A stretch of DNA of 51,633 nt from Thermoplasmatota archaeon (GCA_030616985.1 JAUWWG010000001.1:1-51633); one strand, 5' to 3'. Shown: positions 12,017 through 50,992, numbered from the stretch's first letter. Notes: generated from the sequence alone by a model not told the origin. Program-made: numbers and translations.

Positions 12017-12082
12017 AATTAACTACCTCTACACAGTATTTTGAATGATATTGGTTTGTTTAAAATTAAAAAGGAGATTTTT

Positions 12083-13267: not shown

Positions 13268-13334
13268 AAATCATATACCTCCAATTGACTTTATAAGTGA
13301 GTCTTAGTGGATTCCAGTGAAACATAAGGAAATA

Positions 13335-33288: not shown

Positions 33289-33630
33289 TTCTTATATACC
33301 TCTAAGCTACTTACTAACGCCTGTAATCTATTACCATTATTTAAAAATCTCTATTCAAACGGTAGTCTCAACAAGCAAAATCTTGTGTCATATCACAAAT
33401 CCACAGCATATCTTCCCAAAAATTATCGAAAAAATATGGGTGCAATAATTAAAAACTCTTGAGAAAGGATTATAAATAATGATATAATTAACAATTGTTA
33501 AAAATAAATAAGACTATCGTAAAAACCAAAAAATAATATGGAACTGATTACTTGATCTAAAACAATAAGAAATCATACATAGCAGGATGAATACCTTTTT
33601 ATCCAGGATAGATATTTGAGGAGGAAATTC

Positions 33631-34941
33631 ATGAGAAAAAATATACAAAAATTAATAATCATTGCATTCCTACTCCTATTGTTACAATCTTTAATACAAC
33701 CTGTTTTAGCAGAAGAAAAAATTGTTTTAGATTTTTTTTATACCAGTAATTGTGCATCATGCGAAGAGAAACTAGTGATAATTGAAGATGGTTTTGAAAA
33801 AAATGAGACATATGACGATATACTCATCATAACCAAGAAAAACATAGCAGCAAATGAAGACTACCTTGATGAATGGAGAAACGTATACGATTACTACTCT
33901 TATCCATTTGTAGTTATAAAAAGTGGAACTAATGAGACAATCATTGGTGAGATGGACATAACCGTTGAATATGTCGGAAACGTCATCGCAACATATCTTA
34001 AGGGAGAGAAACCCAATGAGACTTCCGATGAGAACATAATAGATACCCCTTTTGGCAAGATTAATATATCTAGTCTTTCACTTCCAATCCTTACGATTAT
34101 TCTTGGCAGTCTAGATAGTTTTAATCCATGCGCATTTTTTATTCTGATTTTTCTGTTAAATCTTCTATTGTATGCTCGCTCTCGCAGGAGGATGCTCCTT
34201 ATCGGCGGTGTGTTTATCTTTTTCTCTGGACTTCTCTATGCCATATTCATGTTCATATTATTTGAAACTTTTTTACTTAATAGAGAGCATGTTGGAATAA
34301 TCACAATCATTGCAGGTAGTCTTGCACTCACCCTTGGAGTTATCAACATTAAGGATTTCTTCTTTTTCAAAAAGGGAGCTTCTCTAAGCATTCCTGATGA
34401 TAAAAAACCAGGAATATATAAACAGATGAGAAATCTTGTCAGAAACCCCAGGGTTTCAGCTGCAATTATTGGAACGATAGTATTAGCAGGAACTGTTAAT
34501 TTTTATGAGTTGTTGTGTACTCTTGGACTTCCACTTGTGTTTACCCAAAAACTAGCACTATATGATATGTCTGCAATTGAATATTATACCTACATATTTT
34601 TTTACAACGTCGTCTATGTTATTCCGCTCATAATTATTGTTTTAATTTTTGTGTTTACATTGGGAAAAAGAAAACTTACGGAATGGCACGGCCAAGTCAT
34701 GAAACTTGTCACAGGAATTATGCTATCCTCATTTGGCGTGATATTTCTGACTAATTATAAACTTTTAGAAAATGTTGTTACACCTATTTTGTTGCTTGTT
34801 TTCAGCCTCGTAACGACCGCAGTTATTTCCACCGTTTGGAAGAAATACGTTGTTAAAAAAAGAGAAATAACGCCACCTAAGTCAAAAGAAAAAGTTGAAA
34901 AATTAGAAAAAGAGATAGAATCTAAAGAAGAAACTAAATAA
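33631..34941 (+). CDS. Thioredoxin-like CxxC domain fused to a DsbD/CcdA-like thiol-disulfide transmembrane module
   Basis: The ORF track opens at TTG 33616. ATG 33631 follows GAGGAGG by 7 nt. Signal peptide; extracytoplasmic YTSNCASCEEK (CxxC); TM core with Cys-in-membrane motifs SFNPCAFFIL and YELLCTLGLP. Confidence 0.6.
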   Translation: MRKNIQKLIIIAFLLLLLQSLIQPVLAEEKIVLDFFYTSNCASCEEKLVIIEDGFEKNETYDDILIITKKNIAANEDYLDEWRNVYDYYSYPFVVIKSGTNETIIGEMDITVEYVGNVIATYLKGEKPNETSDENIIDTPFGKINISSLSLPILTIILGSLDSFNPCAFFILIFLLNLLLYARSRRRMLLIGGVFIFFSGLLYAIFMFILFETFLLNREHVGIITIIAGSLALTLGVINIKDFFFFKKGASLSIPDDKKPGIYKQMRNLVRNPRVSAAIIGTIVLAGTVNFYELLCTLGLPLVFTQKLALYDMSAIEYYTYIFFYNVVYVIPLIIIVLIFVFTLGKRKLTEWHGQVMKLVTGIMLSSFGVIFLTNYKLLENVVTPILLLVFSLVTTAVISTVWKKYVVKKREITPPKSKEKVEKLEKEIESKEETK

Positions 34942-34944: not shown

Positions 34945-37900
34945 TTAGAATAAAAAGGATGGGAGTTTATCCTTTAGATTTTTTACTTTTGTTACTATTT
35001 TTCCCCTTAGTTGTGATTTTTTTGAAGTTGCCTTTATCTGTGCATTCTTTTTGTCTTGGTTCCATTTAATGAACAAAAATGAGACCAACAGAAGTATAAT
35101 TACAAGCAACGCTAAAGCAATAATCGCCGTATTGTCCGTTTGGGCAATAGAAGTAGAATCATGGCTTGCAATTTTTCCAGTTTTAATATCGTAGATATGG
35201 TCCCATTCGCCATCACCATTTTCATCTATAAGATATGTTCCATCGTTTTGTTGTTCAATATTAATTTCTCCACCAGTTGTACTGTTATAGAACATATCAT
35301 AGACTCCATCAGAATCAACGTCTTTGATGTATCCAATATCGCCAACAATGTGTACATCTATTAAGATGGCGTATTCCATGACTCCAGATTCTGTTTGACC
35401 ATCAAATGCTTTTACGGTAATTGTGTATTTTCCAGCAGCATTCCACTTATGTGTTTGTGTTGTTATCGTTTCGATTGGCAGGAAATCGGTTGTTGTCGTT
35501 TCGCCATCATCCCAGTTAAAAATATATTGTATCTCATCATTATCTTCATCAGTAGAAACTGCAACATAGCTGTATTCAGTATTCTTTATACCATTTTGTG
35601 GACCATCTACTTCAGGAGTGATAGGTGGAACGTTTGGCTTTTCCACCACAGAAACATGCGTAACATCCGTATTGTTCCCACCAGGTCCAGTTACTGTCAG
35701 GCATACAGTATATTCTCCAGCCGTCATATATACATATGTCGGAGAAATTCCAGATCCAGTATTTCCATCACCAAACTCCCAACTATAGGAAGTTATAGAA
35801 CCTGTACTTCCTGACCCGTCAAATGTTAATTCTACTCCAACATATACTCCATATGGCCCACTTCCATCAGCAGTCGGTTCTGATGGCGGAGTCTCTCCTC
35901 CATCCCCATTATCGCCACCTGATGGTTTTGATTCAACTGTAAAAGAATAAGACTTGTTGGTCCAATCAAATCCATCTGTTATGTTTACATACCAAATTAT
36001 ATTTGCATCATATGATAATAGAGTTATAAGATCACAACTAATTGTACCGTTTCCCATAGGACTAGAACTACTATTACTGTCACCAGTACTTGCTTCAATT
36101 GTCCAATTCATTAAATCTCCTTCTGAATCAGCAATATTCACACTTATCGATGACTGCTCACTATCAACGTCTGTCCCACTGTGTAAAGGATCCTCGTTTG
36201 ATTGTGAAGGTACTTGATTATTTGCGGTTGTATCATTTGCTTTAGCATACAATGAACTGTATGTGTTATCAGTCTCATTGTATGACCATGCCTGGTAGAA
36301 ATATTGAATTCCACTGTCTAATCCCGTATGTTGGTAACTGGCCTCCGTATCGTTATAAATTTCAGTACCGGCACCTCTTGACCAGTTTTCTGTAGCGTTC
36401 CACTCAATATATGTGCAATTGCTTCCATCATCTGCCCAAGTTAGATTCATCTGGAAACGGCCATCTGCACTTGCAGTGAAATTATCAGGAGTACCGAGTA
36501 TAACCTTTTCTCTTGTTTTAAAGGTAAAACATTTTCTTGTAGCAGTATAATTGTCTGTAGCATTGACCCAAACTACATACTCAGTATCATAATCTAAATC
36601 AGTTAGTGACAATTCTTTCGTCCCATTACTGTCACAATTTATACTATTTGATTGCCCATTACTACACTCCATAGTCCAGTTAAAATTGTCACCATCTGGA
36701 TCTTCAATATAAATACTCCAGACAAACGAAGGTTCTTGATCCAACGAACTATTTACAGTAGTTTGATTTTTAAAAATTGGCGGATAATTAACTGTGTTAT
36801 TGAATATACAGGTTATGAGGCACCCGTTTTTGATAACAGGAACGTTACGTAATGAAGCTATACCACCATTTGCCATGATTTGTTCCGAACAAACCAAGGC
36901 AACCGCACCCACAAACGAATAGCCATTCTGCATAGTTTCTGTAATATTAACATACGCTATTGTCTCACCAGGACTAATGACTACATTAAATACAATGCTT
37001 CCAGTACCATCTGTAAATCCAGAAGGCGACTCAACCCTCCCACCAGTTACCTCTGCAGTGAATTCCCAATCTTTTGCAGGCTCACCGTCGATGAACTTTT
37101 GAACCACTATACTTCTACTAAAAAGGAGAGCTGTCAAATTGAAAAGTACGTCGTCAAGATCAGATATATCGCAAGTAATAACATCCGTATTGACTGAAAT
37201 TACGTCTGGAGGAACTGTGGAAACATTGGATCCGGAAATTGCTTTTAAATTATCTATATTCAACTCACCACGCAAAATACCATGACCTTCAATACCAATT
37301 GATATGATTCTTATTCCATTGTTTTTTGCAGCATTTGCTGCTGCAATGGCAGCACTTATAGCCTTGCCTCGTGGCAGCGTAGGGCTACCATCCGTGATAA
37401 TAACGATTAGATCACCATCCCCAAGCATTGAATTGGCTTTGGAAATTGCTACATCCCAATTTGTGTATTCTATATCCAAGATATGTCCGATGCTGTCAAT
37501 TGCATTGTTTAGGTCTAAAGAATCATTGGTTGGTGTGAGTGAACTCACCACATGCGAATCGAAATCAATAATACCAATGTTGACTTGAGTCGAAGAGAGA
37601 AGAGGATCAACAAAACTTTCAAAAGCTGCTTTTTTAATATCTTGGAGATCACTTGAGTTTAAACTATCTGAACTATCTATCATCAAAACCATGTCTACAT
37701 CACAAGAAGTAGGCAATACGGGATTAGCCTCAAATCCAACGTAGAAATGAGCCGTTCTTATAGTCCACCAAATTATCCAATGATATTGTATCTGAATATC
37801 CCATTCACCGACCTGAGCATCAAGGGGTAATGTCCAATTAGTAGAAACCTCATTTCCATCTACCTCGTCAGATATATGTACAACCATATTATTCAGGTCC

Positions 37901-38169
37901 CTAATTCTTAATCTCATGCGACCACTTCTACCTATATTTCCATACCCATAGATTGTCTCACCTTGAGCAAAAACTGTTTTGGAAATAGAATGATTATTTT
38001 CAAATGTCCCAACAGTACTATCCATAAAGGTACCAGCTTTTGCAGGTGTCGCAAAGAGTGATATTGCTGACACTGAAGCCAACACCATTATCATTACAAA
38101 AAAACCAGCAGTAAATTTCTTAACTTTATTGTTTCTACTTTTCAGTCTGTTTTGTTTTACCATTTTCAT
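34945..38169 (-). CDS. Large anchored surface protein: VWA, Ig/FN3-like and PKD domains, C-terminal anchor cassette (1,074 aa)
   Basis: GGGAGGTGA SD; signal peptide. The VWA MIDAS motif is in DVDMVLMIDSSDSLNSSD. It has FN3-like repeats and PKD-type blocks (LTFDGSGSTGSITSYSWEFGDGNTGSG; NWDDGETT...HKWNAAGKYTITVKAFDG). The C-terminal end has DxDxDG loops, a TM helix and a Lys-rich tail. Confidence 0.85.
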   Translation of the reverse strand: MKMVKQNRLKSRNNKVKKFTAGFFVMIMVLASVSAISLFATPAKAGTFMDSTVGTFENNHSISKTVFAQGETIYGYGNIGRSGRMRLRIRDLNNMVVHISDEVDGNEVSTNWTLPLDAQVGEWDIQIQYHWIIWWTIRTAHFYVGFEANPVLPTSCDVDMVLMIDSSDSLNSSDLQDIKKAAFESFVDPLLSSTQVNIGIIDFDSHVVSSLTPTNDSLDLNNAIDSIGHILDIEYTNWDVAISKANSMLGDGDLIVIITDGSPTLPRGKAISAAIAAANAAKNNGIRIISIGIEGHGILRGELNIDNLKAISGSNVSTVPPDVISVNTDVITCDISDLDDVLFNLTALLFSRSIVVQKFIDGEPAKDWEFTAEVTGGRVESPSGFTDGTGSIVFNVVISPGETIAYVNITETMQNGYSFVGAVALVCSEQIMANGGIASLRNVPVIKNGCLITCIFNNTVNYPPIFKNQTTVNSSLDQEPSFVWSIYIEDPDGDNFNWTMECSNGQSNSINCDSNGTKELSLTDLDYDTEYVVWVNATDNYTATRKCFTFKTREKVILGTPDNFTASADGRFQMNLTWADDGSNCTYIEWNATENWSRGAGTEIYNDTEASYQHTGLDSGIQYFYQAWSYNETDNTYSSLYAKANDTTANNQVPSQSNEDPLHSGTDVDSEQSSISVNIADSEGDLMNWTIEASTGDSNSSSSPMGNGTISCDLITLLSYDANIIWYVNITDGFDWTNKSYSFTVESKPSGGDNGDGGETPPSEPTADGSGPYGVYVGVELTFDGSGSTGSITSYSWEFGDGNTGSGISPTYVYMTAGEYTVCLTVTGPGGNNTDVTHVSVVEKPNVPPITPEVDGPQNGIKNTEYSYVAVSTDEDNDEIQYIFNWDDGETTTTDFLPIETITTQTHKWNAAGKYTITVKAFDGQTESGVMEYAILIDVHIVGDIGYIKDVDSDGVYDMFYNSTTGGEINIEQQNDGTYLIDENGDGEWDHIYDIKTGKIASHDSTSIAQTDNTAIIALALLVIILLLVSFLFIKWNQDKKNAQIKATSKKSQLRGKIVTKVKNLKDKLPSFLF

Positions 38170-38422
38170 CAGTCCTCACCTCCCTTTTTGTAAGTTTGCT
38201 TATTAAGGATTTGTTGTACAATTGTTACCAGACATCCTTGACAGTTCTTTCTAAAAAACATTTCAAATGATTTTACTAAAGAGATATACGTCTTACACTA
38301 TGACTCCCCATTTGCATTTCTGCCTCAATCTCAAATTTAGACCCACATTTACAAATTACTGAAAATATAATAGAAAAAAAGGATGTCAAAGTTTAGTATT
38401 TTTACCTGAGATTTCTTGCTCT

Positions 38423-39793
38423 TTACCTTTGCTTTTTCCTTACTATTAGATAAATTGTGAACAATAAGACTATCGATACAATCGTACCTACAATTAACGC
38501 ATACCATACTGCATTATTTGCCTCTTCTTTGTCCGCTTGATCATCCTGACTATACTCAACGAGTGTTTCTGTCTCAAGATCGTAGACATAATTCCAGTTA
38601 TTGCCATTCCCATCATCAAAAACATCAAGTATCTTTCTAAAAGCATCAATAGTGTGCTGAGTAGTATCAATTCTTATACGATAGTCATCAATGTTATATC
38701 TTATTGCCCCATCAATCTTATCATCTGAACTGTCATACTGTAGAGCAATCAGATTATGAACGCCAAGTATTATCCCAACTTTGTATTTATTTTGATGCTC
38801 AGTATCATTTATTAGTCTAGCAACCTCATATGCATAGGTCAGTCCCTCTGTATATACGCCGTCCGAGGATGAATGAGGGGTTCCATACTCAGGATGCATA
38901 GGATCATAAAATCGACCTAAAGTAGAACAGTCGTTCGTATCCTGAATTTCCAGCAATTTATCATTTAAAACAATAATGGCATCAACATATTTTTTTTCAC
39001 CAGTTATCTTGTAAAGTTTGTTCAATGATTGAGTATGCCATGGAACATATGCTGGATAGTAATTATCTTCCAAATGAACAACATATCTGTCAATATAGAA
39101 ATCCTGTGATTTTACGGCAGCCGCAAGATAAATACTATCGTTTGTTTTGATATACATTTCAACCAAACTAAGTATTGCTTCTCCTGAGTAAAATGTCAGC
39201 AAATAATCCGTATCATATTCGTAATCGGGGGCTATATACCAGGGTTCAAAGGAACCGTCGGTATTCTGCAATGAAAAAATAGAATTCGCAAGTTTTGTAG
39301 CCTCTTCTTGATAATCATCAAAGAATGGACTATATATCAGTGTTCTTAGTGCCATGGCAATAGCCCCTAATTTCGATTTATTATCGTAGAAAATATAACC
39401 CGTTTCGTTATCCTCTTCATACCAATACTCAAAGATAAAATCCAAATTTTTCTGATGTAAAGTTTCCAAAGAAGAATTTGTTTGACATAACTCGGCCAAC
39501 AGTCGAGAGGCCATAAGCTGACGTATCATGTTATTTTTATCGGGATATTCCCCAGTTGATGGTTCGTAGATGTAATTAAAACATCCTTTTTCCCTGAGAT
39601 TAGATGTTAACCATTTTTCAGCCGGATTTAAGGAATTGTTTATCTTTTCATAAGATAAATCAACAATTTCAATACTAGAATAGCCCTCTTCTATGCACCC
39701 TGGAAGGAAAACTGATGAAAATATAAGAGAACCCATTACAGCAAGAATTGTCAGTTTACGGCAAATATGTATCGGACAAAATTTTTTGAACAT
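38423..39793 (-). CDS. Lipobox-bearing, C-terminally anchored (alpha/alpha)-toroid-like protein (456 aa)
   Basis: Signal with LPGC lipobox-like motif. LQNTDGSFEPW resembles the Q-x-x-DG-[GS]-[FW] repeat of prenyltransferase/terpene-cyclase-like alpha/alpha barrels. The C-terminus carries NWNYVYDLETETLVEYS, a TM helix and RKKQR. Confidence 0.6.
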   Translation of the reverse strand: MFKKFCPIHICRKLTILAVMGSLIFSSVFLPGCIEEGYSSIEIVDLSYEKINNSLNPAEKWLTSNLREKGCFNYIYEPSTGEYPDKNNMIRQLMASRLLAELCQTNSSLETLHQKNLDFIFEYWYEEDNETGYIFYDNKSKLGAIAMALRTLIYSPFFDDYQEEATKLANSIFSLQNTDGSFEPWYIAPDYEYDTDYLLTFYSGEAILSLVEMYIKTNDSIYLAAAVKSQDFYIDRYVVHLEDNYYPAYVPWHTQSLNKLYKITGEKKYVDAIIVLNDKLLEIQDTNDCSTLGRFYDPMHPEYGTPHSSSDGVYTEGLTYAYEVARLINDTEHQNKYKVGIILGVHNLIALQYDSSDDKIDGAIRYNIDDYRIRIDTTQHTIDAFRKILDVFDDGNGNNWNYVYDLETETLVEYSQDDQADKEEANNAVWYALIVGTIVSIVLLFTIYLIVRKKQR

Positions 39794-39960
39794 ACTTCTA
39801 AAAATCTTTTAACCTCCAAATATCTCTATCCTTCATTATTGTTATTTAACCTTGTTTTATAATTGTTTCTCAGGTCGGAGTTAATCCAGCAAAGCAATAT
39901 CTTAGAAAGACGGGTAGTAATTAGGAAAATAAGAAATAAAAAAAAGAAAAAAAAGAGGTT

Positions 39961-41391
39961 TTATTTTTTAGATTTTTTACTGGTAGTTTTCTTTTTTGGC
40001 TGTGATTTTTTCTCAGCTGCCTTCTTTTGTGCTTTCTTTTTATCATTGCTTCGTTTTACCAGATAGCCTAATATGATTAGGAAAAGTATTACGATTATTG
40101 CTAAAACAATAAGTGCGGTGTTATCTGGCTCTGGCGTTGGTTCACTGTACTCGGTAAGTGTGTCTGTTTCAATATCATAAATCCAATCCCATGAGTCGTC
40201 TCCATCATCATCGAGGAGATATGTTCCATCATCTTGTTTTTCAACGTCGGTTTCTTGGGCTGATGTATCATTATGGAAAGAATCATAGGTTCCATCCGCA
40301 TCGTCGTCAATGAGGTAGCCAATGTCATCCACAAGATGCACATCTATTAACACTGTGATTTGATTGGTGGAAGATACGGTCTCATTGTCAGAAGCTCTAA
40401 CTGTGAGAGTGTATTTACCAGCAGACATCCAGCTATGGATCTGCGTTGATGCTGTGCCGTTTGGTAGAAACTCAGTTTCTGTAACTTCACCATCACCCCA
40501 ATTAATTATATATTGAATGGTATCATTGTCTGGGTCAGTTGACTGGAAGATATAGGTATACTCGGTGTCTTTTGTTCCCTCAGATGTTCCATCTATTGTC
40601 GGTTCTGTGGGTGGGAGATTTGCTTTTGAAATTATAACATCAATGGTATCTGTATCCGTAGCACCTACGTTATCAGTAACTCTCAATGTCACTGAATAAG
40701 TGCCCTCTGCATCAAAAGTATGTGTAGCAGTGCTAGAAGTTGAGTTATAATCATAGATTCCATCGTTGTCCCAATCCCATTCATACAAGTCAATTGTGCC
40801 ATCACTATCAGTACTAAGAGAACCGTCAAAGTAGATTGACTCATCCACAAATCCAGATGTTTGACTTTCAGATGCGTCTGCTATTGGTGGTGCGTTTCCA
40901 CCACCAATGTATCCATCACCATCGCCGTCTCCGTCTCCATCGCCGTCTCCATCGCTGTCACCATCTCCATCGCCGTCTCCGTCTCCATCGCCGTCTCCAC
41001 TAGTTGTATCAACATGTAAATCTATCATGTCCACACTTTCTTCCACGGGAACATTATATGTCGGATTATCTGTTATTACACCTGAAATGGAAACTCCAAA
41101 TGTGCCTGTTTCACCTTCATGTCCTACAAAGGAAATAGAATACTTGCCTCCATTCTTTGTAGTATCCTCATGATCATTACTTGAAAATGATAACGTAACA
41201 GTTACTCCATCTTTGAGTTCGTCGTCAATGTACAACTCCCCAGCAACCGTATGAAACTCTTCTGCTTTTATTGTTGGAACAATTGCTACTGAGACTGATG
41301 CAAGCATTATACTCATTATTACTATCGATAATATTTTTCTTTTATTCATAAATCTCTTCCCCATTTTTTTGTATTGGTAAGTTGTTTTCAT
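39961..41391 (-). CDS. Anchored PKD-domain surface protein with a (GD)n linker (476 aa)
   Basis: Signal peptide. 29-residue GD/SD repeat. PKD blocks (YFDGSLSTDSDGTIDLYEWDWDNDG; NWGDGEVT...HSWMSAGKYTLTVRASD) are paralogous to the C-terminal third of the 1,074-aa protein. It has the same anchor cassette. Confidence 0.8.
   Translation of the reverse strand: MKTTYQYKKMGKRFMNKRKILSIVIMSIMLASVSVAIVPTIKAEEFHTVAGELYIDDELKDGVTVTLSFSSNDHEDTTKNGGKYSISFVGHEGETGTFGVSISGVITDNPTYNVPVEESVDMIDLHVDTTSGDGDGDGDGDGDGDSDGDGDGDGDGDGDGYIGGGNAPPIADASESQTSGFVDESIYFDGSLSTDSDGTIDLYEWDWDNDGIYDYNSTSSTATHTFDAEGTYSVTLRVTDNVGATDTDTIDVIISKANLPPTEPTIDGTSEGTKDTEYTYIFQSTDPDNDTIQYIINWGDGEVTETEFLPNGTASTQIHSWMSAGKYTLTVRASDNETVSSTNQITVLIDVHLVDDIGYLIDDDADGTYDSFHNDTSAQETDVEKQDDGTYLLDDDGDDSWDWIYDIETDTLTEYSEPTPEPDNTALIVLAIIVILFLIILGYLVKRSNDKKKAQKKAAEKKSQPKKKTTSKKSKK
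40912..40998 (-). repeat. In-frame short tandem repeat encoding (Gly-Asp)n
   Basis: 87 nt of GGNGAY-type units (plus strand ...ccatcgccgtctccgtctccatcgccgtctcc...) encode GDGDGDGDGDGDSDGDGDGDGDGDGDG. Confidence 0.9.
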
Positions 41392-41428
41392 AGTTTATAT
41401 ACCTGTCCATTTTTTCTAAATCATAGTT

Positions 41429-44400
41429 TTATCGTTTGGTATCTACAGTAATTTGTATTTCTTGTACAGCTAGTATCGCACCGTCACCTATAACCTTTAA
41501 GCATATGAAGTACGTACCATCTGGTGTTTCCTCAGGAACCGTTATGCTCACGTTGAATTCTAATGTTTCTCCTCCGCCGACGTCATAGTGTGCTTCGGGC
41601 TCCCATTCGAACCAGTCTTCATAACCCTCACTTACTTCAAGGGTTAACTCACTGACTGTTGCGGTAATATCTTCAATAAGTTCAACGATTGCATCTCCAA
41701 GGTCACCTGAACTGGCAAGTTCTTCAAATAAACCACCGGTTTCACTAGTTGCATACAACCAAGGACAATCATCATATCCACCTGAATCAATAACTACCAC
41801 TGAAATATCAGCGGCCTTTAAATCAGCTATAACATCAGCCCACGGTAAATCATCACTCGTTCCTGCAATAGCATCTCGTCCTGGGTCTACACCAGTATTG
41901 CCCGAACATCCAAATGTACTAAAGTCACAGTCATGAGGAATATTGTCCTCGAATATTACTACGATTTTTCTCGCTCCGAATCTCCAACCAACGAATTGGG
42001 ATTCATAAAGAGCCCTTGCATATGACTCAGGTCCATCAGCTCCGCCACCTAAAACGAGAGCGTTTATGGCTGTGCTAACTGCACTTGCGTCAGTTGTTAT
42101 ATCTTGATCTAGACTCCATGCATAATCGCCATATGAGGGATAACCATAGTCGCTTGAATATCCACAGTAATTGTAATATGCGGGATAATCCATGAAAGAT
42201 CCTACACCGAAGTAAGAGTTACTAATATTAGAACGTATATCGGTCATGATATCTATGGCGCTTGTCTTTGCGCTGCTTATCACACCACCCATACTTCCGG
42301 TTAGATCAAATAGGAACATGACATCAAGCTTACCTATTGGAATCTCATCAGTGATAATTGTCTTGTTATCCCAGACGGATTCTCCTGGAATCATGGTTGC
42401 TTCGAAAGATTCAGGGCTCACTGTTGCTCCACCACCTGCTGTACATTCAAGACATTGAATGGAAATGGATGCATCATCTGTTGCAGTGCATCCTGCCATA
42501 TCTGTTGCCTTAGCTGTAATGTTGTAGGTATGATCTAATGTCCATATGCCTTCTGAATCATATTCCCAGTATTCATCATAGTCGTGAGCACATAGGAGCC
42601 ATGTTTCTTCTGGAATCCAAGCACTACCATTCCAATATGCATCCGCAGTAATATCGTGTATTAGTACATGTACTTCATCTACTCCTGTTTCATAGTCGTA
42701 TGCATAGAAATTCATGTTACCTGGTCCTTCACATCTAACATCGCCATCCATCGGATCAAGTATTTCAACTTCAGGTCCACTAGTATCAGTGTAAAATCTT
42801 GCTTCGGTGTCGTTCATTTTCACCCAGTAGTCCTTACCACAGTACATATCTTCTAGATCAACGAAACCCATTTCCACTAGTTCCTTAATCCACGAATGCC
42901 ACGCGTCTTCTACCACATCATAATAGTATATCTTAGAGTACATACCATCTATAGAGGCTAGTACACTTTCTACAGAGTTATTACAGCTAATTCCACCAAA
43001 TGGAATTGTTAATTTGTTCCATCCGTTTTGCATCCATTGATCCCATACAGTACTACTGCAAATCTCAAATGTCACGGGTATTGCAAATTCAGAGTTCATA
43101 TCTCCATCCACTGCTAAAGCTTGCAGTGTTATTTCAGCTCCATTTTGATATTTAAAGATATCAATATCTGCATACCAATAACCATCAGTTGTATTGTATT
43201 CTGGATCATACCAGAGTGTTGGTGCATCACGTCTACCACCAGGTATCCATAGTTTAACTGTTAGTTCATCCCAAGATGATTCATGATCAAACGCAGTAAT
43301 ATTTACTTTTAACGTTCTTTCGCAATGAGTGGATCCAAACATCGGATCGTTAATCATTATAGTAGGTCCAGTATCACCAGGTGAACACACCCAGAATGTC
43401 TCATTATCTATTTCTCCACGGTTACCAAGGCAATCATATGCTCTTGCTTCTAGATAATGTACACACCCTCTTGTCAAAGTGATACATTCTGTATAGTCAG
43501 TCCATTCAGTCCAACTTCCAAGATACCAGATTCTATATTCAATGGTTACTCCTTCACACGGACAACATCCTTCGTCACCTATCTCAGTGAAACAAATCTC
43601 GGTATCAGGGAATATCATCCATTGATCATGACCTGACGAATCATTTTCAAGTTTTACTTTTGGATCGCCAACTATCTTTTCAGGTTTTGGCGGTGGTGTA
43701 TCATCTACATAGAATGTCTCATGATCCCAGAATGCATCATCCAATCCGTTTCCAAGACAGTCGTAAGCTCTAACAACTAATTCATGAACGCATTCTTCTG
43801 TGAAATTGAATGGCTCTTTGTATTCGATCCAGTCAGTCCAAACCCAAACTTCATAATCGTAAAATCCAATCATGTATTCAATAGTTACATTTGTACATGG
43901 ACAGCAACCCATTTCCAGTGCATCGAGTGTGATAAGTGTTTCAGTTGTTACACAGTAATCGTCTTCACCCATCTCGCCGCAGTCTGTACAGTTGGGATCA
44001 CCAACGGTTTTGATGATCTCAGGTGGTGTTTCATCAACGTAGAATGTTTCATTATCCCAGTACATTTCATCCATACCGTTACCAAGACAGTCATATGCTC
44101 TAACATATAATTGGTGCTCGCATTCCTCGGTGAAATTGAATGGCTCAATATACTCAATCCAGCTACCATCTCCAATCTTGTATTCAATAGTTACACCCTC
44201 ACTCGGACAGCAACCTTGCTCTACCGCTTCAAGTGTAATCAATGTATCAGTTGTAACACAGTAATCATCATCACCCATTTCACCGCATCCAGTGCAATTC
44301 AGATCACCAACAGTCTTGATGATCTCAGGTGGTGTATCATCAACGAAGAATGTTTCATTATCTATTTCTCCAAGGTTGCCGAGGCAATCATAGGCCCTTG

Positions 44401-47400
44401 CTTCAAGATAATGTACACATTCTCCACTTAGGGTAATGTTGCCAGTATAATTCATCCAACTTGTCCATGTTCCCAAGTACCAAATTCTATATTCAATTGT
44501 AAAATCTCCGCTTGGGCAACATCCTAGATCAACAGCATCAAGTGTAATGTTAGTATCTGTTGTTACACAGTATCGATCTGGAACAAGGACTTCAATAAAT
44601 GTTTTCTGAGCGTCCTCGCCTGCATCACAAAGAATGGCACACCATTCACCTATCGATGGCATGAAGCCTTCCCCAAAGTTCGTTGCATTTTCAACCATCG
44701 ATTTTCCAGCATCGTTTGATGGATCATTGCCCCCATCTACGAAATACCAAATTGCTTCTTGGATATCTGTCTTGGTTGCATCTGGATGTTTATGATTTAT
44801 GATATAGTTTACCATATCCCAGTCAGAATCTGGCCAAGGCATTAATGGATCATAAGAACACCATAGATCAACTGAATAATCAACTCCATTACTGATGAGC
44901 TGATTTTGATCTACACACCAACCAAGATAGTCGCCATTGGCAATATCATATCCAAATGGAACATTGCTGAGAGTGACATCAAAATAACTGTTAGCTCCCC
45001 AATGTTGAACAACCATAGTCACTGAGCTTGAAGGCAATTTCAAAGATTTACAGTTAAGAGTACAGTTTGGATCTCCAACAGTCTTTTCTATTATTGGAGC
45101 AGTGATATCAACATAGAATGTCTCATTATCCTCGAACTCGTTACCCAAAATATCTGTTGCACGAATAAGCAGGTAATGCATGCATTCTTCGGTGAGATAG
45201 AGAGGTTCATCTTCGAGTTCTTCAAGCAGCATCCATCCCGTCCAGTCTCCATTGTACCAGATATTGTATTCAACTGTATCAAGACCAACACCACCCATAC
45301 ATCCGCGATCTTCAGCGTAGAATGTAATTGGTGTGTCTGGTGTAATACAATATTCTTCTCCAGTTACAATAGTGCAATTTGGATCGCCGACGGTTTTAAA
45401 AATAGTTGGTGGGGTTAAATCAACATAGACAAGTTGTTTTCGACCAACGACTTTATTTTCTAGTTTATCAATTGCTTGATGATAGATGAAGTGCATACAT
45501 TCTTCATTAAGTTGAATGTCAATAATCATTTTTCCCTCAGTATCATCAAGGTCTCCGCTAACACTCACATTAGCATCTTCATATCCTGTGTCATTGTTAT
45601 CATAAATGATTCCTTCTGCAATGATTTGTGTTTTATTATTTTCAATTCTCCAAATAATACGGTCTACACCCGCTATACCACCAGTACATCCAGTATCATT
45701 GGCAAAAATTCTTTTTATACTTTGATTATTGATGTAGCGTGCTCCACCAGGTAAAAGATAAGAATCTATGTAGGTGAAATCATCGTTTGAAGGCGCATCA
45801 AAATCAACGAGAAAATCATATGGTGGTAAATAATTCCAGTTTCCCATTGTATCTACACAATGCGCATGGATTTGATGAAAGCAACTTTCCTCAATGTAGA
45901 ACTGGATGGATATTCTACCATCATTGAGGTCTGCATCTGTGGTAAAGGGGTTTCCGGTTTGTTGGTTATCATAGACAAAAACCCATGCTGGGTCATCCCA
46001 GCTTCCAAATACATCCGATTTGAATAATTTATATTTAATAAAGTCAGTTCCTGTTTCCGCATCTGATGAGTTAATCCATACCGGTGTTTGTGACCCAATT
46101 AAATCAAGCCATTCCAACCCTGTATTGTATACATCTTCCATAAGTGGTGTTCCAAGTTCAATGGTTTGCGTTGGTGGGTAGTCTTCACCGTTATCTTCAC
46201 AGACTGTTGTTTCTTCTACCTTTGTAGTTGGTGGGGTCTCATCGCTTTCAATAGTTGCATAGTTGGAAATTATTGTTTCAGATGGAGTTAAGGGATCAAC
46301 CTGGACAAGCAACCATAGACAATCTCCTTCCTCAGTAGAAATAGTTCCAATATCCCAGCTAACATTGTGGTTAACACTATCATAGCTCCCACCAGGTGAA
46401 GCATCAATAAATATCAATTCTGATGGAAGAGTATCCTCAATCATTACATTATTAACCGTGAACTCGTTCATATTATCAAAACAGATACTATAATTAATAT
46501 CATCGCCAGGACTTACACACTCACCTTCTCTTATTCCATCATCTTTATCAAGATTCAAAGGATTATATGAAACATCCGAAATAGGTATGCATAAACCTGC
46601 AGGATCACCAATATCACCTGTAATATCAAGCTGAGTAAATGGAGTAGTACTCGTATCCCAAGCGATTAACTGATCCCCATTATATCCATGAGTAGAATAT
46701 ACATAGCCTGTTATCTGATCAACAGCAAGACCCATAGCACCATTAGTCATCGTATGTGTTGTCTCAGTAGCACTGTTAAGATCATATTTACATAATACAT
46801 TATTACCTGCAAATCCAGCTCCAGTATAGAGAAAACCACGTACGTAATCAACTGCAATACCAATGGGATAATTACTCAAAGTAATCGCTCCCTGAAGACT
46901 CCACGTTGCCGTATCATAATATGTAACATTTAATTGATAATAATTAGAAACATAAAGAATATCTTTGGCTTCATCTAAAGCAATACCATACATATCACTA
47001 CCTGGAAGGTTAATAGGAAAACCTGCCTCCAATGTTAGCGTCTTAGCAACTGGATCCCAAACATAAGAATAAAGTTTATCTGTACCTCTGTCTACTATAT
47101 AGAGCAGTTCCTTCTCATGGTCATAAACAACACCTGCAAGGTTACTTGCTCCAGGTGCTACTACTGATCCTTCTCCAACCATAGTAGTACCATTAATAAG
47201 CGAAAGAGTACCACTACTTTCCTGTGTCAAAAAAAGATAACCAGAGTTCGAATCAATAGCCAGGCCAACAGAACCCCAACCAAAGGCAGTGTTATATGTA
47301 GCTTGATAAGTAAATGTCCCATCAACATTAATATTATATGCCTGAATGGGCGCAGCATTATCATTGGTGTTGGAACACACATAAAGTGACTTTGCACTAA

Positions 47401-47473
47401 CATTTCCACAAGCAACTGCTAATAGAGCGACAAACACCAGCGTCAAAAATATTACAAACATTTTCTTTTTCAT
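41429..47473 (-). CDS. Giant secreted surface protein (2,014 aa): beta-propeller, DUF11-like, six Cys-rich Ig-like modules (one with a thioester-domain-like insert), Ig-like region, VWA, C-terminal beta-sandwich; no membrane anchor
   Basis: The signal peptide is MKKKMFVIFLTLVFVALLAVACG. It has YVTN-type propeller repeats (GIAVD..LYV.N pattern) and a DUF11-like block NYSICFDN...VMIEDTLPSELIFIDASPGG. Modules are of the type ETFYVD-TPP-I-KTVGDPNC...GCCP...IEY...H.L..RAYDCLGN. The VWA motif is LDVMFLFDLTGSMGG. It ends ...ITVDTKR with no hydrophobic tail. Confidence 0.9.
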   Translation of the reverse strand: MKKKMFVIFLTLVFVALLAVACGNVSAKSLYVCSNTNDNAAPIQAYNINVDGTFTYQATYNTAFGWGSVGLAIDSNSGYLFLTQESSGTLSLINGTTMVGEGSVVAPGASNLAGVVYDHEKELLYIVDRGTDKLYSYVWDPVAKTLTLEAGFPINLPGSDMYGIALDEAKDILYVSNYYQLNVTYYDTATWSLQGAITLSNYPIGIAVDYVRGFLYTGAGFAGNNVLCKYDLNSATETTHTMTNGAMGLAVDQITGYVYSTHGYNGDQLIAWDTSTTPFTQLDITGDIGDPAGLCIPISDVSYNPLNLDKDDGIREGECVSPGDDINYSICFDNMNEFTVNNVMIEDTLPSELIFIDASPGGSYDSVNHNVSWDIGTISTEEGDCLWLLVQVDPLTPSETIISNYATIESDETPPTTKVEETTVCEDNGEDYPPTQTIELGTPLMEDVYNTGLEWLDLIGSQTPVWINSSDAETGTDFIKYKLFKSDVFGSWDDPAWVFVYDNQQTGNPFTTDADLNDGRISIQFYIEESCFHQIHAHCVDTMGNWNYLPPYDFLVDFDAPSNDDFTYIDSYLLPGGARYINNQSIKRIFANDTGCTGGIAGVDRIIWRIENNKTQIIAEGIIYDNNDTGYEDANVSVSGDLDDTEGKMIIDIQLNEECMHFIYHQAIDKLENKVVGRKQLVYVDLTPPTIFKTVGDPNCTIVTGEEYCITPDTPITFYAEDRGCMGGVGLDTVEYNIWYNGDWTGWMLLEELEDEPLYLTEECMHYLLIRATDILGNEFEDNETFYVDITAPIIEKTVGDPNCTLNCKSLKLPSSSVTMVVQHWGANSYFDVTLSNVPFGYDIANGDYLGWCVDQNQLISNGVDYSVDLWCSYDPLMPWPDSDWDMVNYIINHKHPDATKTDIQEAIWYFVDGGNDPSNDAGKSMVENATNFGEGFMPSIGEWCAILCDAGEDAQKTFIEVLVPDRYCVTTDTNITLDAVDLGCCPSGDFTIEYRIWYLGTWTSWMNYTGNITLSGECVHYLEARAYDCLGNLGEIDNETFFVDDTPPEIIKTVGDLNCTGCGEMGDDDYCVTTDTLITLEAVEQGCCPSEGVTIEYKIGDGSWIEYIEPFNFTEECEHQLYVRAYDCLGNGMDEMYWDNETFYVDETPPEIIKTVGDPNCTDCGEMGEDDYCVTTETLITLDALEMGCCPCTNVTIEYMIGFYDYEVWVWTDWIEYKEPFNFTEECVHELVVRAYDCLGNGLDDAFWDHETFYVDDTPPPKPEKIVGDPKVKLENDSSGHDQWMIFPDTEICFTEIGDEGCCPCEGVTIEYRIWYLGSWTEWTDYTECITLTRGCVHYLEARAYDCLGNRGEIDNETFWVCSPGDTGPTIMINDPMFGSTHCERTLKVNITAFDHESSWDELTVKLWIPGGRRDAPTLWYDPEYNTTDGYWYADIDIFKYQNGAEITLQALAVDGDMNSEFAIPVTFEICSSTVWDQWMQNGWNKLTIPFGGISCNNSVESVLASIDGMYSKIYYYDVVEDAWHSWIKELVEMGFVDLEDMYCGKDYWVKMNDTEARFYTDTSGPEVEILDPMDGDVRCEGPGNMNFYAYDYETGVDEVHVLIHDITADAYWNGSAWIPEETWLLCAHDYDEYWEYDSEGIWTLDHTYNITAKATDMAGCTATDDASISIQCLECTAGGGATVSPESFEATMIPGESVWDNKTIITDEIPIGKLDVMFLFDLTGSMGGVISSAKTSAIDIMTDIRSNISNSYFGVGSFMDYPAYYNYCGYSSDYGYPSYGDYAWSLDQDITTDASAVSTAINALVLGGGADGPESYARALYESQFVGWRFGARKIVVIFEDNIPHDCDFSTFGCSGNTGVDPGRDAIAGTSDDLPWADVIADLKAADISVVVIDSGGYDDCPWLYATSETGGLFEELASSGDLGDAIVELIEDITATVSELTLEVSEGYEDWFEWEPEAHYDVGGGETLEFNVSITVPEETPDGTYFICLKVIGDGAILAVQEIQITVDTKR
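43403..45436 (-). repeat. Six tandem ~100-110-aa Cys-rich Ig-like modules inside the giant gene
   Basis: Module boundaries by hand count: residues 680-783, 784-1039 (with insert), 1040-1141, 1142-1251, 1252-1357. Each is delimited by [EQ]-[TL]-[FV]-[YFW]-V-D-x-T-[PA]-P. Confidence 0.8.
44579..45058 (-). other. Thioester-domain (TQXA/TED)-like insert in module 2 of the giant protein
   Basis: Cys853 sits in GDYLGWCVDQ (codon 44915-44917). Gln905 sits in MVNYIINHKHPDATKTDIQEAIWYFVDG (codon 44759-44761). This gives aromatic-C-aliphatic-D and Q-x-A-I-W contexts like Gram-positive adhesin TEDs. Confidence 0.4.
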
Positions 47474-48177
47474 TTTTATTTTCTCCTTATATTCTTCTTG
47501 GGAAAAATTTACTTCCCCCTTACAATCTCATCAGTTTTATCCATTCTACATATTTTATTTTAGCTGTTTATGAGTTAAATCATCTCATAATAGGCCAAAT
47601 TACTATTATTCATCCATTTATATATTTTTCGTAATAGTAGATTTTCTATATGAACAGCCATATTCCCCCATCTTCATCCATCTCACGTCTATAATAACGT
47701 CCATTTATTATCTCATCATTATAAGGAAACTTTATATAAGTTTATCGATATTTTACTTATATTCTTTATTTATATTTTTGTGATATTTATAATATATGTT
47801 TTATATGTGATATGTGCAACAACGCATGGTTTCTAGACGATTTTTATGATTGTAGCTCTTGTATTATTGTAAACCACAACTTTTACTTCAGCCACATCGT
47901 ATATTCAACTAACACACCATAAACACAGTGCTCATAACATACTAACATCTTAAAAAAAAACTAAATGGACTAGAATGAAAAGAAAATTAAAATGAAAAAA
48001 AATAGGTCTAAAAATCATTTTTATTTCCAATCCAAATTCACATGGACAAGAAGTATATATTTTGATAAATGAACTTATCACACATGCTTTTTCAAAACTA
48101 CATCTGGTTTCCATTAAAACTATACTAACAAACAAGAAAAACATAAGAAAAAAAATAGACTTTTAATGATAATGTTA

Positions 48178-48408
48178 TCAGTCAAAATCTGTTCCTAGAT
48201 CGTAGCCACAATACGGACATTCATTTCCATCGTCCAGGGCTTGATTACAGTTAGGGCATACGCTCTCAGAGCTAAAATCTTGGTTTTCAGCTTCGATAGA
48301 ACACCCACATTTTGGGCACACATAGGTAGGGGGCAAACTATCGGACGAAAGATGCATTTTCTCACCGCAATTTGGACAGACCCATTTTTCTTCCAGTTCC
48401 GTTATCAT
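48178..48408 (-). CDS. Multi-CxxC zinc-ribbon protein (76 aa from ATG 48408; 83 aa if TTG 48429 is used)
   Basis: CPNC, CPKC, CPNC, CPYC pairs. It lies behind conserved-element promoter copy 3. Confidence 0.6.
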   Translation of the reverse strand: MITELEEKWVCPNCGEKMHLSSDSLPPTYVCPKCGCSIEAENQDFSSESVCPNCNQALDDGNECPYCGYDLGTDFD

Positions 48409-48465
48409 TTCCACATATATCCGCTCCAATTTTATTACAAAGCATTTTATTGTCTACTGCCTATT

Positions 48466-48499: not shown

Positions 48500-48676
48500 A
48501 AAATATTTCCTTACGCTCCTATTATGAAGGCAGGTTTCAGATTGTATACACCATCCAACACATATTCTAAATGTTTGACATGCAACTTCATCCCACTTGT
48601 ATTCGGCTTTTCCCAAACGTTTTAAACAACTATTTATACAAAACCAATTATAACAAAGGACAGAGGTTTGGTTTTA

Positions 48677-50992
48677 ATGAAAATTGATAAAAAAATTATT
48701 TCGCTGCTAATAGTCGGTCTGCTTGCATCAACAGTTATGCCAGGATGTATCGAACAACAAAGTGGAAGTAGCGGAATAGGATTGATCACCATACCCGCTG
48801 CAAGTGCATCTGCTTCGGATAACCCAAAATACGCTATGGCATCATATTACAGTTCAGAAGAACTAATTATAAACACCAGTGTACCTCAATATGACCTGCC
48901 TTTAGATTTAACATCGATAACAAACGTAAATGACATCTATTCTCGATTTTACCTTAACGAGGAGCAAAAAAATCTTTTGAGTGGAAATGGCTTCGTTGTC
49001 ATAGACCGCGGCTTTGAAAATGATATAATCCGGCCATATAAAGAAATGAAACTAGCCGACATACCAATTTTTGTAACCAGTGATACATTGCTGCATTTAT
49101 ACCACATACAATTTGATGAAATACTGAAGGGAATAGAAGAAAGGGAATTCTTTGGCAAAATTCTAGATCTAAGCAAAGCACTTTTTGATAAATCAGTAGA
49201 AGGCTATCAGAACTATATTGATAGTGATCTAAAGGAGGTGGCACGGCGCAATATCGCCTATTTGGCTGTTGGGCTGTCTCTATTGCAAACGCCAACAGAA
49301 GAATATGATGGGTCTGAGGATATACAAACAGTCGATTTTAGCATCCCTAGTTATGTAAACGATGAAGTAGAAGGAGAAGTTGCATTTATTGAATCTCAAG
49401 ATGGTTTTCATGATAGTCCACTATTTCTCTATAGGGAGGATTACTCCCAATACAAACCACGGGGACACTACATGCAATCAGAGAAACTCAAACGCTATTT
49501 CAAAGCCATGATGTGGTACGGACGAATGTCCTTTTTGATGAAAGGCGGAACTCCCCATTGCCAATACTGTGATTTTCTGATATCTGATAATGATGCAAAG
49601 ATTCAAACAATTCAGGCAAGCTTGATAGCTACTACATTACCAAGCGTGACGATAGATGACGAATCCCTTGAAAACATATGGACAAGAATATACAAGGTTA
49701 CGTCTTTCTTTGTGGGAACCGCAGATGATCTTACGCCATATGAATATCTTGACTGCATAAAGGATGTTTTCGGATCGGAATTCAATGCAACCGAACTTGC
49801 CAATGATACAAAACTACTCGAGTTGAAAGTGGAACTAGTACAACTCAGAAACCCAAAGATATATGGTGGAACAGGAGAAATAGTCATACTTAAGCCACCT
49901 GGAGTGCCATTTACCATTGAGGATCTCAACGAAACGCTTGACAAAACCAAAGGCATGCGGCTCATGGGACAACGATTCATACCAGATTCATACATGTTCC
50001 AACAACTGGTATTCCCTGCAGTAGATCCATTTACTGGAACAGGAAAACCATTCACCATGGAGTACACCGGTGGAGGGCCTGCCCGTGTTTTTCCCAGAGG
50101 ACTTGATGTCATGGCAGTACTAGGATCAGACAGAGCCCTTGAAATCCTCGAAAACGAAGGCGACACAGAATATGAACACTACTATGAACAACTAAACATG
50201 TTGCAGGAAAACTTCTCCAACCTGAACATTACGGAATGGAACCGCAATCTATATTTCAGTTGGATATACACCCTAAAATCATTATTAAAAGAGTACAACA
50301 GCAGCTATCCGACATTTATGAATACAGCCGCATGGCAGGATAAGGGACTACAGACAGTACTTGCATCCTGGAGTGAACTGCGCCATGATACAATCCTTTA
50401 TGGAAAACAGAGCTATACACCAATTAAAGCAACGTCAGTAGAACCTCCGGAAAAACCTGTTGTTGGATATGTCGAACCAGTACCAGAATTCTACTTACGA
50501 ATTCATGCACTCACCAAAATGACACGAGACGGACTAACAGACCTTAATGTTCTAAACGACACAGAAACCAATAGATTACAAAGCCTAGAAATAATTCTCG
50601 AACGTTTAATTAACATATCAAAAAAAGAGCTTGAAAACAAGGAACTTACAGATTCTGACTATGAATTCATCAGAAACTTTGGTGAAAACCTGGACAGTAT
50701 AGTAACTGGAGTCAAAGATAAGGGAAAAGAAACAACGATTATTGCAGATGTACACACCGACACAAACACAGGACAAGTCTTAGAAGAAGGAGTTGGATAT
50801 GTCGACCTAATCCTCGTTGCGTACACGGCTCCTAATGGCAACATCATAGTTGGCGTAGGTCCCGTCCTTAGCTACTATGAATTTAAACATCCAATGGATA
50901 ATCGACTAACCGATGAGCAATGGACCGACATGCTACAAGGCGGGCAAACTCCAGATAGACCTGATTGGATTATCTCATTTATATCAGAATAA
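48677..50992 (+). CDS. DUF3160-like secreted lipoprotein (771 aa)
   Basis: The ORF track opens at TTG 48668; ATG 48677 follows GGACAGAGG. Lipobox-like VMPGC. PIFVTSDTLLHLYHIQFDEILK and YSQYKPRGHY match DUF3160 signature segments as I recall them. Confidence 0.7.
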   Translation: MKIDKKIISLLIVGLLASTVMPGCIEQQSGSSGIGLITIPAASASASDNPKYAMASYYSSEELIINTSVPQYDLPLDLTSITNVNDIYSRFYLNEEQKNLLSGNGFVVIDRGFENDIIRPYKEMKLADIPIFVTSDTLLHLYHIQFDEILKGIEEREFFGKILDLSKALFDKSVEGYQNYIDSDLKEVARRNIAYLAVGLSLLQTPTEEYDGSEDIQTVDFSIPSYVNDEVEGEVAFIESQDGFHDSPLFLYREDYSQYKPRGHYMQSEKLKRYFKAMMWYGRMSFLMKGGTPHCQYCDFLISDNDAKIQTIQASLIATTLPSVTIDDESLENIWTRIYKVTSFFVGTADDLTPYEYLDCIKDVFGSEFNATELANDTKLLELKVELVQLRNPKIYGGTGEIVILKPPGVPFTIEDLNETLDKTKGMRLMGQRFIPDSYMFQQLVFPAVDPFTGTGKPFTMEYTGGGPARVFPRGLDVMAVLGSDRALEILENEGDTEYEHYYEQLNMLQENFSNLNITEWNRNLYFSWIYTLKSLLKEYNSSYPTFMNTAAWQDKGLQTVLASWSELRHDTILYGKQSYTPIKATSVEPPEKPVVGYVEPVPEFYLRIHALTKMTRDGLTDLNVLNDTETNRLQSLEIILERLINISKKELENKELTDSDYEFIRNFGENLDSIVTGVKDKGKETTIIADVHTDTNTGQVLEEGVGYVDLILVAYTAPNGNIIVGVGPVLSYYEFKHPMDNRLTDEQWTDMLQGGQTPDRPDWIISFISE

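Follow-up and report, generated by a model that had tools for sequence, protein, structure and literature searches.

The closest described counterparts of the proteins treated here are the TIE adhesins of Gram-positive bacteria, the cellulosomes, the DUF11/CLIPPER fibrillar adhesins, the substrates of archaeosortases, and OmpL47 of Leptospira. In thioester domains (TEDs), the thioester residues are a Cys within a [YFW]C-hydrophobic-[DEQN] motif and a Gln within a QxA[IV]W motif. Cellulosome display involves a very large, anchorless, secreted modular protein that is encoded beside the gene for a smaller anchored protein. DUF11/CLIPPER domains belong to a CnaA-like family in which an isopeptide bond is possible, and CLIPPER adhesins usually carry their own sorting signal, i.e. 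PGF-, PEF- or VPXXXP-CTERM, LPXTG or OmpA (PMC12617251). Here we describe a locus from a Thermoplasmatota archaeon (GCA_030616985.1, JAUWWG010000001.1:1-51633; the whole stretch of 51,633 nt is referred to as the window), at which the gene for a secreted giant protein without an anchor, G1, is directly followed by the gene for a membrane-anchored protein, G2. Our preferred reading, to which we assign a probability of roughly 55%, is that G1 and G2 form a two-part cell-surface adhesin, in which the anchorless giant is held by its membrane partner.

The window has a GC content of about 36% and contains an archaeal gene set, including RadA, SMC together with ScpA and ScpB, an MCM-like protein, MtrH, and a PAS-DUF835 protein. 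The closest relatives among metagenome-assembled genomes (MAGs) are labelled Thermoplasmata or Thermoplasmatales, and the GC content would be compatible with an assignment to MBG-D. G1 and G2 are the first two of four long open reading frames (ORFs), G1 to G4, that are arranged head to tail on the minus strand (Table 1). An earlier inspection of the DNA (the sequence-only reading) had reported four co-oriented genes with signal-type N-termini and short AT-rich spacers, and the ORFs agree exactly with its coordinates. Each of the four proteins has an N-terminal hydrophobic signal-type segment, and G2, G3, and G4 end with a transmembrane (TM) helix followed by a basic tail. The three consecutive spacers have lengths of 37, 167, and 253 nt and GC contents of 24-32%. 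Runs of seven to eight T residues are found 3' of G2 and of G3, and a TATA-like box precedes G3, whereas the G1-G2 spacer is devoid of an oligo-T run. These features suggest three transcription units (G1-G2, G3, and G4) instead of one, and the G1-G2 pair is probably co-transcribed.

Table 1. Features of the giant-partner locus and of its neighbours, in coordinates of the window (NTD, N-terminal domain; TM, transmembrane helix; cassette, 74-aa juxtamembrane module; numbers in the last column are amino acids of the respective protein)
Feature	Position in protein (aa)	Coordinates	Strand	Description and basis
G1		41429..47473	-	2014 aa; secreted giant, adhesin-like; cleavable signal peptide; no C-terminal anchor
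G1 beta-propeller-like head (YncE/lactonase type)	28-300	46574..47392	-	Lactonase PF10282, E 1.2e-4 on isolated region; NF052280 YncE weak
G1 DUF11/CLIPPER domain	320-414	46232..46516	-	PF01345, E 8.3e-11
G1 stalk, seven OmpL47-type Ig-like modules	432-1362	43388..46180	-	NF047446, E 6e-31
G1 predicted TED fold, inserted in fourth OmpL47 module	811-965	44579..45043	-	about 155 residues; AlphaFold2 and Foldseek
G1 conserved middle-to-C-terminal region, including 'WDQWMQxGWN' domain	1365-1700	42374..43381	-	common to most giants
G1 integrin-beta-like VWA	1716-1900	41774..42328	-	PF00362, PF24909; DLTGS MIDAS-like motif (1723)
G2		39961..41391	-	476 aa; partner of G1; signal peptide, NTD 41-130, (GD)n linker 131-158, PKD 166-252, PKD-like 255-344, cassette 345-418, TM 421-449, Lys-rich tail
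G2 NTD	41-130	41002..41271	-	family-specific Ig-like domain; jackhmmer family
G2 cassette	345-418	40138..40359	-	74 aa; Asp-rich, juxtamembrane, two DxDxDG-type loops
G3		38423..39793	-	456 aa; lipobox-like LPGC 30-33; ectodomain without family; distal half of cassette 392-416; TM 427-453
G4		34945..38169	-	1074 aa; VWA 159-315 (DSSDS, 165), fn3-like, PKD 764-841, PKD-like, cassette 933-1006, TM 1008-1038
Zinc-ribbon protein		48178..48429	-	83 aa; four CxxC pairs (double zinc ribbon); upstream of G1
DUF3160 lipoprotein-like secreted protein		48668..50992	+	PF11369, E 7.6e-210; lipobox-like MPGC; divergent from zinc-ribbon gene and G1
TrxMem		33616..34941	+	441 aa; signal anchor, thioredoxin-like ectodomain (CASC), six-TM domain; convergent with G4, 3-nt gap

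The absence of an anchor is a property of the whole giant family. The sole hydrophobic segment of G1 comprises aa 1-30, and its signal peptide is predicted to be cleaved at ..NVSA|KSLY, an AxA|KSLY site that is common to the homologues. No C-terminal TM helix is present in G1, in the full-length giants P0001 and P0005-P0009, or in the giants of 2651-2710 aa encoded at the loci L062, L084, L085, and L096. The homologues have lengths of 1.3-2.7 thousand residues and stem from MAGs of Thermoplasmata and Thermoplasmatales and from sediment metagenomes. The sequence-only reading had noted the missing anchor of G1, and this now holds for every full-length member. The alternative it had raised, that homologues carry anchors of their own and this copy is truncated, was not borne out. 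An assembly artefact is ruled out by the C-terminus of the close homologue P0002, which has the same residues as G1 at most of the last 80 positions compared, and by the uniformly anchorless family. A lipoprotein nature of G1 is likewise ruled out, because the Cys at aa 22 is missing in the homologues, which share the cleavage site.

A cleavable signal peptide and the lack of an anchor would also fit a giant that is released from the cell and acts, via TED and VWA, in the extracellular matrix, in aggregation, or in substrate capture, with G2 as a receptor, sensor, or processing partner. The adhesive domains at both ends of G1, the propeller head and the VWA tip, are compatible with such a role, and a stabilising effect on cell aggregates has been reported for DUF11-containing proteins of Methanothermobacter (cited in PMC12617251). 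Nevertheless, we regard release as quite unlikely, because a tether would be expected to show just this arrangement, a conserved pair of genes that lie close together and of which one encodes an anchored protein. In addition, homologues from Methanosarcinales that consist of the head only are anchored to the cell by PEF-CTERM, suggesting that the head acts at the cell surface. Three short proteins (476-654 aa) with a PEF-CTERM end were found in MAGs of Methanosarcinales and Methanobacteriota (L007 2-1693, L014 9962-11392, and L014 12202-14166), of which only the first two match the propeller and DUF11 head of G1.

The evidence for a dedicated partner comes from gene neighbourhoods. A G2-type gene directly follows the giant gene on the same strand in the window, at L001, L002, L018, and L019, and at 15 dereplicated metagenome loci; indeed, a downstream partner gene is present at every locus with readable sequence 3' of the giant. 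The spacing does not exceed about 110 nt across loci. A look-up of G2 by exact sequence in a contig index gave no record. This arrangement has been retained although the giants have diverged: identity to G1 is 74% at L001, and at L002 it is 35% in the best BLASTP alignment and 47% in an alignment of the head. For the reverse approach, 80 metagenome loci were retrieved with a profile of the cassette, the 74-aa module that precedes the TM helix of G2. Upstream sequence was readable for 34 small cassette genes, 17 of which follow an anchorless G1 homologue and 6 a large ORF that is cut by the contig end, while none of 11 large cassette proteins directly follows a giant. The decisive feature is the NTD of about 95 residues, which is located right after the signal peptide of G2. 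Of the NTD-positive cassette proteins for which upstream sequence could be read, 21 remained after dereplication, and every one of them comes after a giant (15) or after a large ORF truncated at the contig end (6); among NTD-negative ones this holds for only 3 of 22. Many of these loci stem from related organisms and consist of short metagenome contigs, and the counts are therefore not phylogenetically independent. The difference between the two groups points to G2 as a specific partner of the giant that is marked by its NTD and not by its cassette. The NTD belongs to no Pfam family and has just a weak, partial similarity to the BIg extender domains of RTX adhesins and Bap. The remainder of the ectodomain fits the PKD/(GD)n description of the sequence-only reading: it has an acidic (GD)n linker and two PKD-type domains, and PKD_4 was matched above the curated cut-off.

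The cassette turned out to be a widespread element. The sequence-only reading had seen one common anchor cassette in G2, G3, and G4 and had taken it as a sign of a dedicated complex. The cassettes of G2 and G4 are indeed related over the full 74 aa, with 50% identity, but G3 has only the distal half together with the TM helix, for which homology was confirmed by iterative searching. A word-indexed search that used only the cassette yielded 13 candidates with 1 match and was superseded by a full hidden Markov model (HMM) scan of 1.84 billion representative proteins, which yielded 792 matches at E <=1e-3 and 330 at E <=1e-10, counted as protein clusters at 50% identity. The cassette is followed within 0-15 residues by the start of a TM helix and then by a Lys/Arg-rich tail in 142 of 145 representatives, and PKD domains are present in 76 of 78 full-length representatives. 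The N-terminal cargo is diverse and includes fn3, NosD/beta-helix, DUF11, and cohesin domains, peptidases C25 and S8, and CBM96. No match to the cassette was found in Pfam, NCBIfam, or the PDB, including a comparison of the profile with the PDB. The arrangement of PKD, PKD-like domain, cassette, and TM helix is thus a generic display stalk that is used lineage-wide. Because the cassette is generic, its sharing is by itself no sign of a complex, and the cassette was rejected as a complex-specific element.

The anchored cassette proteins end in three parts, as archaeosortase signals do, with a motif that is followed by a TM helix and then by a basic cluster. A PGF motif is found within 45 residues after the cassette in 20 of 145 proteins, and in the three that were inspected (P0075, P0085, and P0088) it stands directly before the TM helix, as in PGF-CTERM. 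Another 27 proteins have a W[YF]-type motif within the same distance, e.g. WYAL, as in G3. In contrast to archaeosortase substrates, the cytoplasmic tails of G2 and G4 reach 27-36 residues, which is atypical, and neither a PGF or PEF motif nor a match to a sorting-signal model of Pfam or NCBIfam was found in G2, G3, or G4. The display stalk may therefore be used both with and without archaeosortase processing. With cellulosome display the locus shares the concept of a very large anchorless protein beside the gene for a smaller anchored one, and the two Ca-binding-type DxDxDG loops of the cassette are loosely dockerin-like. However, the cassette is membrane-proximal and generic, hence not a specific docking element, carbohydrate-active enzymes are missing, and G1 to G4 gave no match to cohesin (PF00963) or dockerin (PF00404), even at E values up to 10 on sub-regions.

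G3 and G4 are less tightly linked to the giant. Homologues of G3 follow the partner gene only at L018 and in three close relatives (L024, L029, and L030), and homologues of G4 are in position only in two of these, L024 and L030. The four-gene order is thus kept in close relatives and not family-wide, and G3 and G4 appear to be accessory surface proteins on the generic anchor module that are tied to G1-G2 only in close relatives. Of the dedicated complex of four that the sequence-only reading had proposed, and of the neighbourhood conservation that it had put forward as a check, the part concerning the NTD-type partner stood, while the parts concerning G3, G4, and cassette proteins in general did not. 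For G3, the label alpha/alpha-toroid found a counterpart only in a GH127-like match (PF07944) that covers aa 162-278 and scores 18.5 bits against a cut-off of 24.9, and no PDB match was found for G3 by sequence. In G4, which the sequence-only reading had described as a VWA/FN3/PKD protein, the VWA domain (PF00092, 41.7 bits versus 23.8) and PKD_4 are above their cut-offs, whereas fn3 remained below (18.2 bits versus 25). The two MIDAS-like motifs that had been noted, DSSDS in G4 and DLTGS in G1, were both recovered.

These distributions also bear on a simpler explanation, namely that the region is an island of surface-protein genes without any physical complex, brought together by shared regulation, by common needs in secretion or folding (e.g. 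for TrxMem), or by duplication and shuffling of the PKD-cassette module. A generic cassette and PKD stalk behind many cargo domains, the linkage of G3 and G4 to the giant in close relatives only, the terminator-like oligo-T runs and TATA-like box that separate G2, G3, and G4, and the clustering of cassette genes with each other at 7 of 80 loci would all be accounted for. We nonetheless consider this explanation rather unlikely for the G1-G2 pair, because it does not predict the near-perfect association of NTD and giant, which holds across giants that are only 35-50% identical, nor the consistent lack of an anchor in the giants.

The domain content of G1 is that of a fibrillar adhesin. The sequence-only reading had listed a propeller, a DUF11-like domain, six Cys-rich Ig-like modules, a thioester-domain-like insert, and a VWA domain. 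Of these, DUF11 was found well above the curated cut-offs (PF01345, 42.7 bits versus 24.6; TIGR01451, 32.9 bits versus 24), while the two presumed adhesive ends are borderline: the propeller scored 21.9 bits versus 21.7 with Lactonase on the isolated region, and for Integrin_beta, with a cut-off of 24.8, the score was 25.8 bits when the region was isolated and 21.8 bits for full-length G1. The head, consisting of propeller and DUF11, was used as alignment query and has an identity of 47-53% across six aligned homologues. The stalk was not resolved into repeats by a BLASTP self-comparison of G1; an iterative HMM search delimited seven modules instead of six, five of them Cys-rich and the other two divergent. 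The region that follows the stalk is matched by the giants upstream of partner genes (BLAST alignments to G1 1339-1672, 1477-1670, and 1562-1682). The C-terminal tip of G1 is composed of the integrin-beta-like VWA domain and a NEW3-like sandwich, and the tip varies among giants. In total, G1 contains 64 Cys residues.

With the DUF11/CLIPPER adhesins, including those of Methanothermobacter, G1 shares the signal peptide, the CLIPPER domain, the tandem Ig-like stalk, and adhesive VWA and propeller domains (PMC12617251). It differs from them in that the anchor would be supplied by a separate gene, in having a single CLIPPER domain, and in a stalk that is built of OmpL47-type Cys-rich modules. The resemblance to Leptospira OmpL47 itself is confined to the domain type (NF047446, E 6e-31); the score of G1 is 80.6 bits, as opposed to the cut-off of 250 bits of the OmpL47 equivalog model.

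The thioester-domain-like insert was borne out as a fold by modelling. Prediction of the TED-bearing module with an alignment of 3 sequences gave a pLDDT of 31.7; an alignment of 101 sequences was used instead, and the resulting AlphaFold2 model of the insert has a pLDDT of 95.8 and a pTM of 0.90. In a Foldseek search of the PDB, ranks 1-18 were all bacterial TEDs, including those of SfbI, C. perfringens, FNE, Cpa, and the B. anthracis TIE protein (best entries 5a0l, 5a0g, 5dcq, and 2xid), and the best match, 5a0l, had an E value of 3.7e-6, a probability of 1.00, and a TM-score of 0.58. In the alignment, the Cys of GWCVD is conserved in 101 of 101 sequences and the Gln of DIQxAIW in 100 of 101, so that Cys853 and Gln905 are the candidate reactive pair of G1. 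A second Gln (model position 146, Gln956 in G1) is also invariant (101/101). The predicted fold together with this Cys/Gln pair would place the insert among the TEDs.

As in TIE adhesins, the invariant Cys is located at a strand end, the Gln in the helix motif QxAIW, and the predicted TED is part of a long multi-domain adhesin that also holds an isopeptide-type (CLIPPER) domain. There are also differences. G1 is archaeal, its compact TED of about 155 aa interrupts a mid-protein Ig-like module instead of forming the N-terminal tip, the domain scores below the Pfam cut-off, the thioester is putative, and neither LPXTG nor another anchor of its own is present. A profile search revealed 118 relatives of the insert (P0179-P0296) from archaea, e.g. 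Bathyarchaeia, and from bacteria. Most of them are small secreted proteins of 220-280 aa with a PEF-CTERM-like, PEP-CTERM, or dockerin sequence at the C-terminus, and none bears a Pfam TED annotation. Sequence comparison of the insert with the PDB, both as a single sequence and as a 3-sequence profile, gave no match, and no TQXA match was found in NCBIfam.

Two further observations concern TED-bearing proteins. At L058, L078, L079, L097, and L100, cassette-bearing ORFs of 480-620 aa begin with a TED-like domain, in some cases followed by SdrD_B, and continue with PKD, the cassette, and a TM helix; these small, self-anchored thioester-type proteins reuse the PKD-cassette display stalk. The giant homologue P0004 of L021 is seemingly split by a frameshift or stop codon just past the TED (ORFs 7761-11801 and 11910-13674).

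Taken together, the preferred two-part adhesin would work as follows. G1 would be exported, and its signal peptide would be cut at the conserved AxA|KSLY site. The giant would then fold into a disulfide-rich stalk, possibly aided by TrxMem, a predicted membrane protein with a thioredoxin-like domain, the gene of which is convergent with G4; a probable role of TrxMem is to support thiol-disulfide chemistry in the Cys-rich giant. G2 would be a type-I membrane protein in which the PKD-cassette-TM stalk serves as a generic anchor and the NTD docks the giant and retains it on the cell. Targets would be bound by the propeller head and the VWA tip and, in the present copy, also by the TED, the latter possibly in a covalent manner via a nucleophile of the target. 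We thus infer that G1 is physically tethered by G2.

A more far-reaching version of this reading was also considered, a two-part covalent apparatus with a working thioester warhead, the NTD protein as docking partner, and TrxMem for maturation. By these searches, the giants with a TED would then be the first archaeal thioester-type covalent adhesins, and the compact TED family would also comprise the small PEF-CTERM, PEP-CTERM, and dockerin proteins of other archaea and bacteria. We put this version forward only tentatively.

Several results weigh against the proposed tether or against parts of it, in addition to the relatedness of the loci counted above. The case for contact between G1 and G2 is drawn from gene adjacency, and adjacency could be explained by co-regulation alone. 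The C-terminal ends of the giants vary, and no conserved docking surface was identified in them. At L018, the partner combines an NTD with PKD domains and a TM helix and lacks the cassette, indicating that the cassette is dispensable. The Pfam TED family PF08341 has a gathering cut-off of 22 bits, which is not reached by G1 (14.7 bits, E 0.04) or by the TED-like proteins of L058 (15.7 bits) and L100 (16.0 bits). Among the giants, the TED is present only in G1, P0001, and P0004: the P0002 fragment has none at the position of the insert, and the matches of P0005-P0009 never cover it. As only some giants have the TED, it cannot be a general working principle of these proteins.

At other loci, the third gene often encodes an NTD protein without an anchor, and clusters often contain two or three NTD proteins, one of them anchored and one or two not. 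This arrangement raises the idea of a filament or pilus-like appendage, in which NTD proteins would polymerise or cap a fibre with the giant as tip adhesin. A type IV pilus locus directly upstream of the giant homologue of L021 and a weak NCBIfam match between the PKD-like domain and PamR, a pilus protein, would be in line with it. However, the PamR match amounts to 32 bits versus a cut-off of 300, a pilin-type signal, prepilin peptidase, or assembly ATPase is missing from the window and from most loci, and the window contains no unanchored NTD protein. We therefore regard an appendage as highly improbable.

Fibrillar adhesin architecture, CLIPPER, TED, VWA, and PKD are known kinds of elements. 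In contrast, the split of adhesin and anchor over two dedicated archaeal genes, the NTD and cassette families, and a compact archaeal TED family are undescribed in the four libraries searched and in the literature found, and a literature search at the level of titles and abstracts returned no description of archaeal TEDs or of the giant-partner gene pair. Three sequence families without a catalogue entry are defined here: the 74-aa juxtamembrane cassette with about 800 clusters, the partner NTD, and the compact TED. Benthic Thermoplasmata are abundant uncultured sediment archaea that are thought to feed on detrital protein. An anchorless giant with a dedicated anchor offers a concrete and testable model of how such cells may attach to particles or to partner cells. 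If the thioester is functional, covalent-adhesion chemistry would extend beyond the Gram-positive bacteria, from which all solved-structure matches found here originate, and the compact domains could become a source of new small self-ligating protein tags.

Three further recurring neighbours of the giant clusters, absent from the sequence-only reading, are a zinc-ribbon gene, a gene for a DUF3160 lipoprotein, and TrxMem. The zinc-ribbon gene is separated from G1 by a spacer of 704 nt (47474-48177) with a GC content of 26% and several oligo-T runs. Its position is kept at L001 and L002, while at L005, which belongs to a closely related MAG, about 8 kb separate it from the giant further downstream; identities are 65-95% at these three loci, with 95% at L005, and L001 also has a paralogue. 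The interposed genes at L005 (306-8306) encode a multi-TM membrane protein, a 154-aa protein, signal-peptide proteins of 511 and 413 aa, and a 695-aa protein, the L001 counterpart of which matches CarboxypepD_reg. The upstream part of the cluster has thus been rearranged between relatives. The DUF3160 gene has the same arrangement at L001 (95% identity) and L002 (67%). In the literature found, DUF3160 is mentioned in a single paper, as the 'secreted enzyme' arCOG03316.

TrxMem homologues with 55-65% identity end the giant/cassette clusters of L002 and of 10 metagenome loci. The N-terminal part of TrxMem aligns with thioredoxin with the CxxC in register (6z7o, E 0.009). Two invariant Cys residues, within the motifs NPC and ELLC, are embedded in TM segments of its membrane domain, and this domain gave no match in Pfam, NCBIfam, or the PDB. 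The two embedded Cys residues are a feature that we take to be reminiscent of DsbD/CcdA; no DsbD or CcdA profile matched. The locus upstream of the giant homologue P0004 mentioned above (L021 469-7256) is of the archaeal type IV pilus-like kind and encodes a PilB-type ATPase, PilC, two Pilin_N proteins, and a KaiC-like ATPase. Finally, secreted proteins of the NosD/beta-helix type are encoded in the window at 9630-10649 (plus strand) and, at L018, beside the giant cluster (9853-10980).

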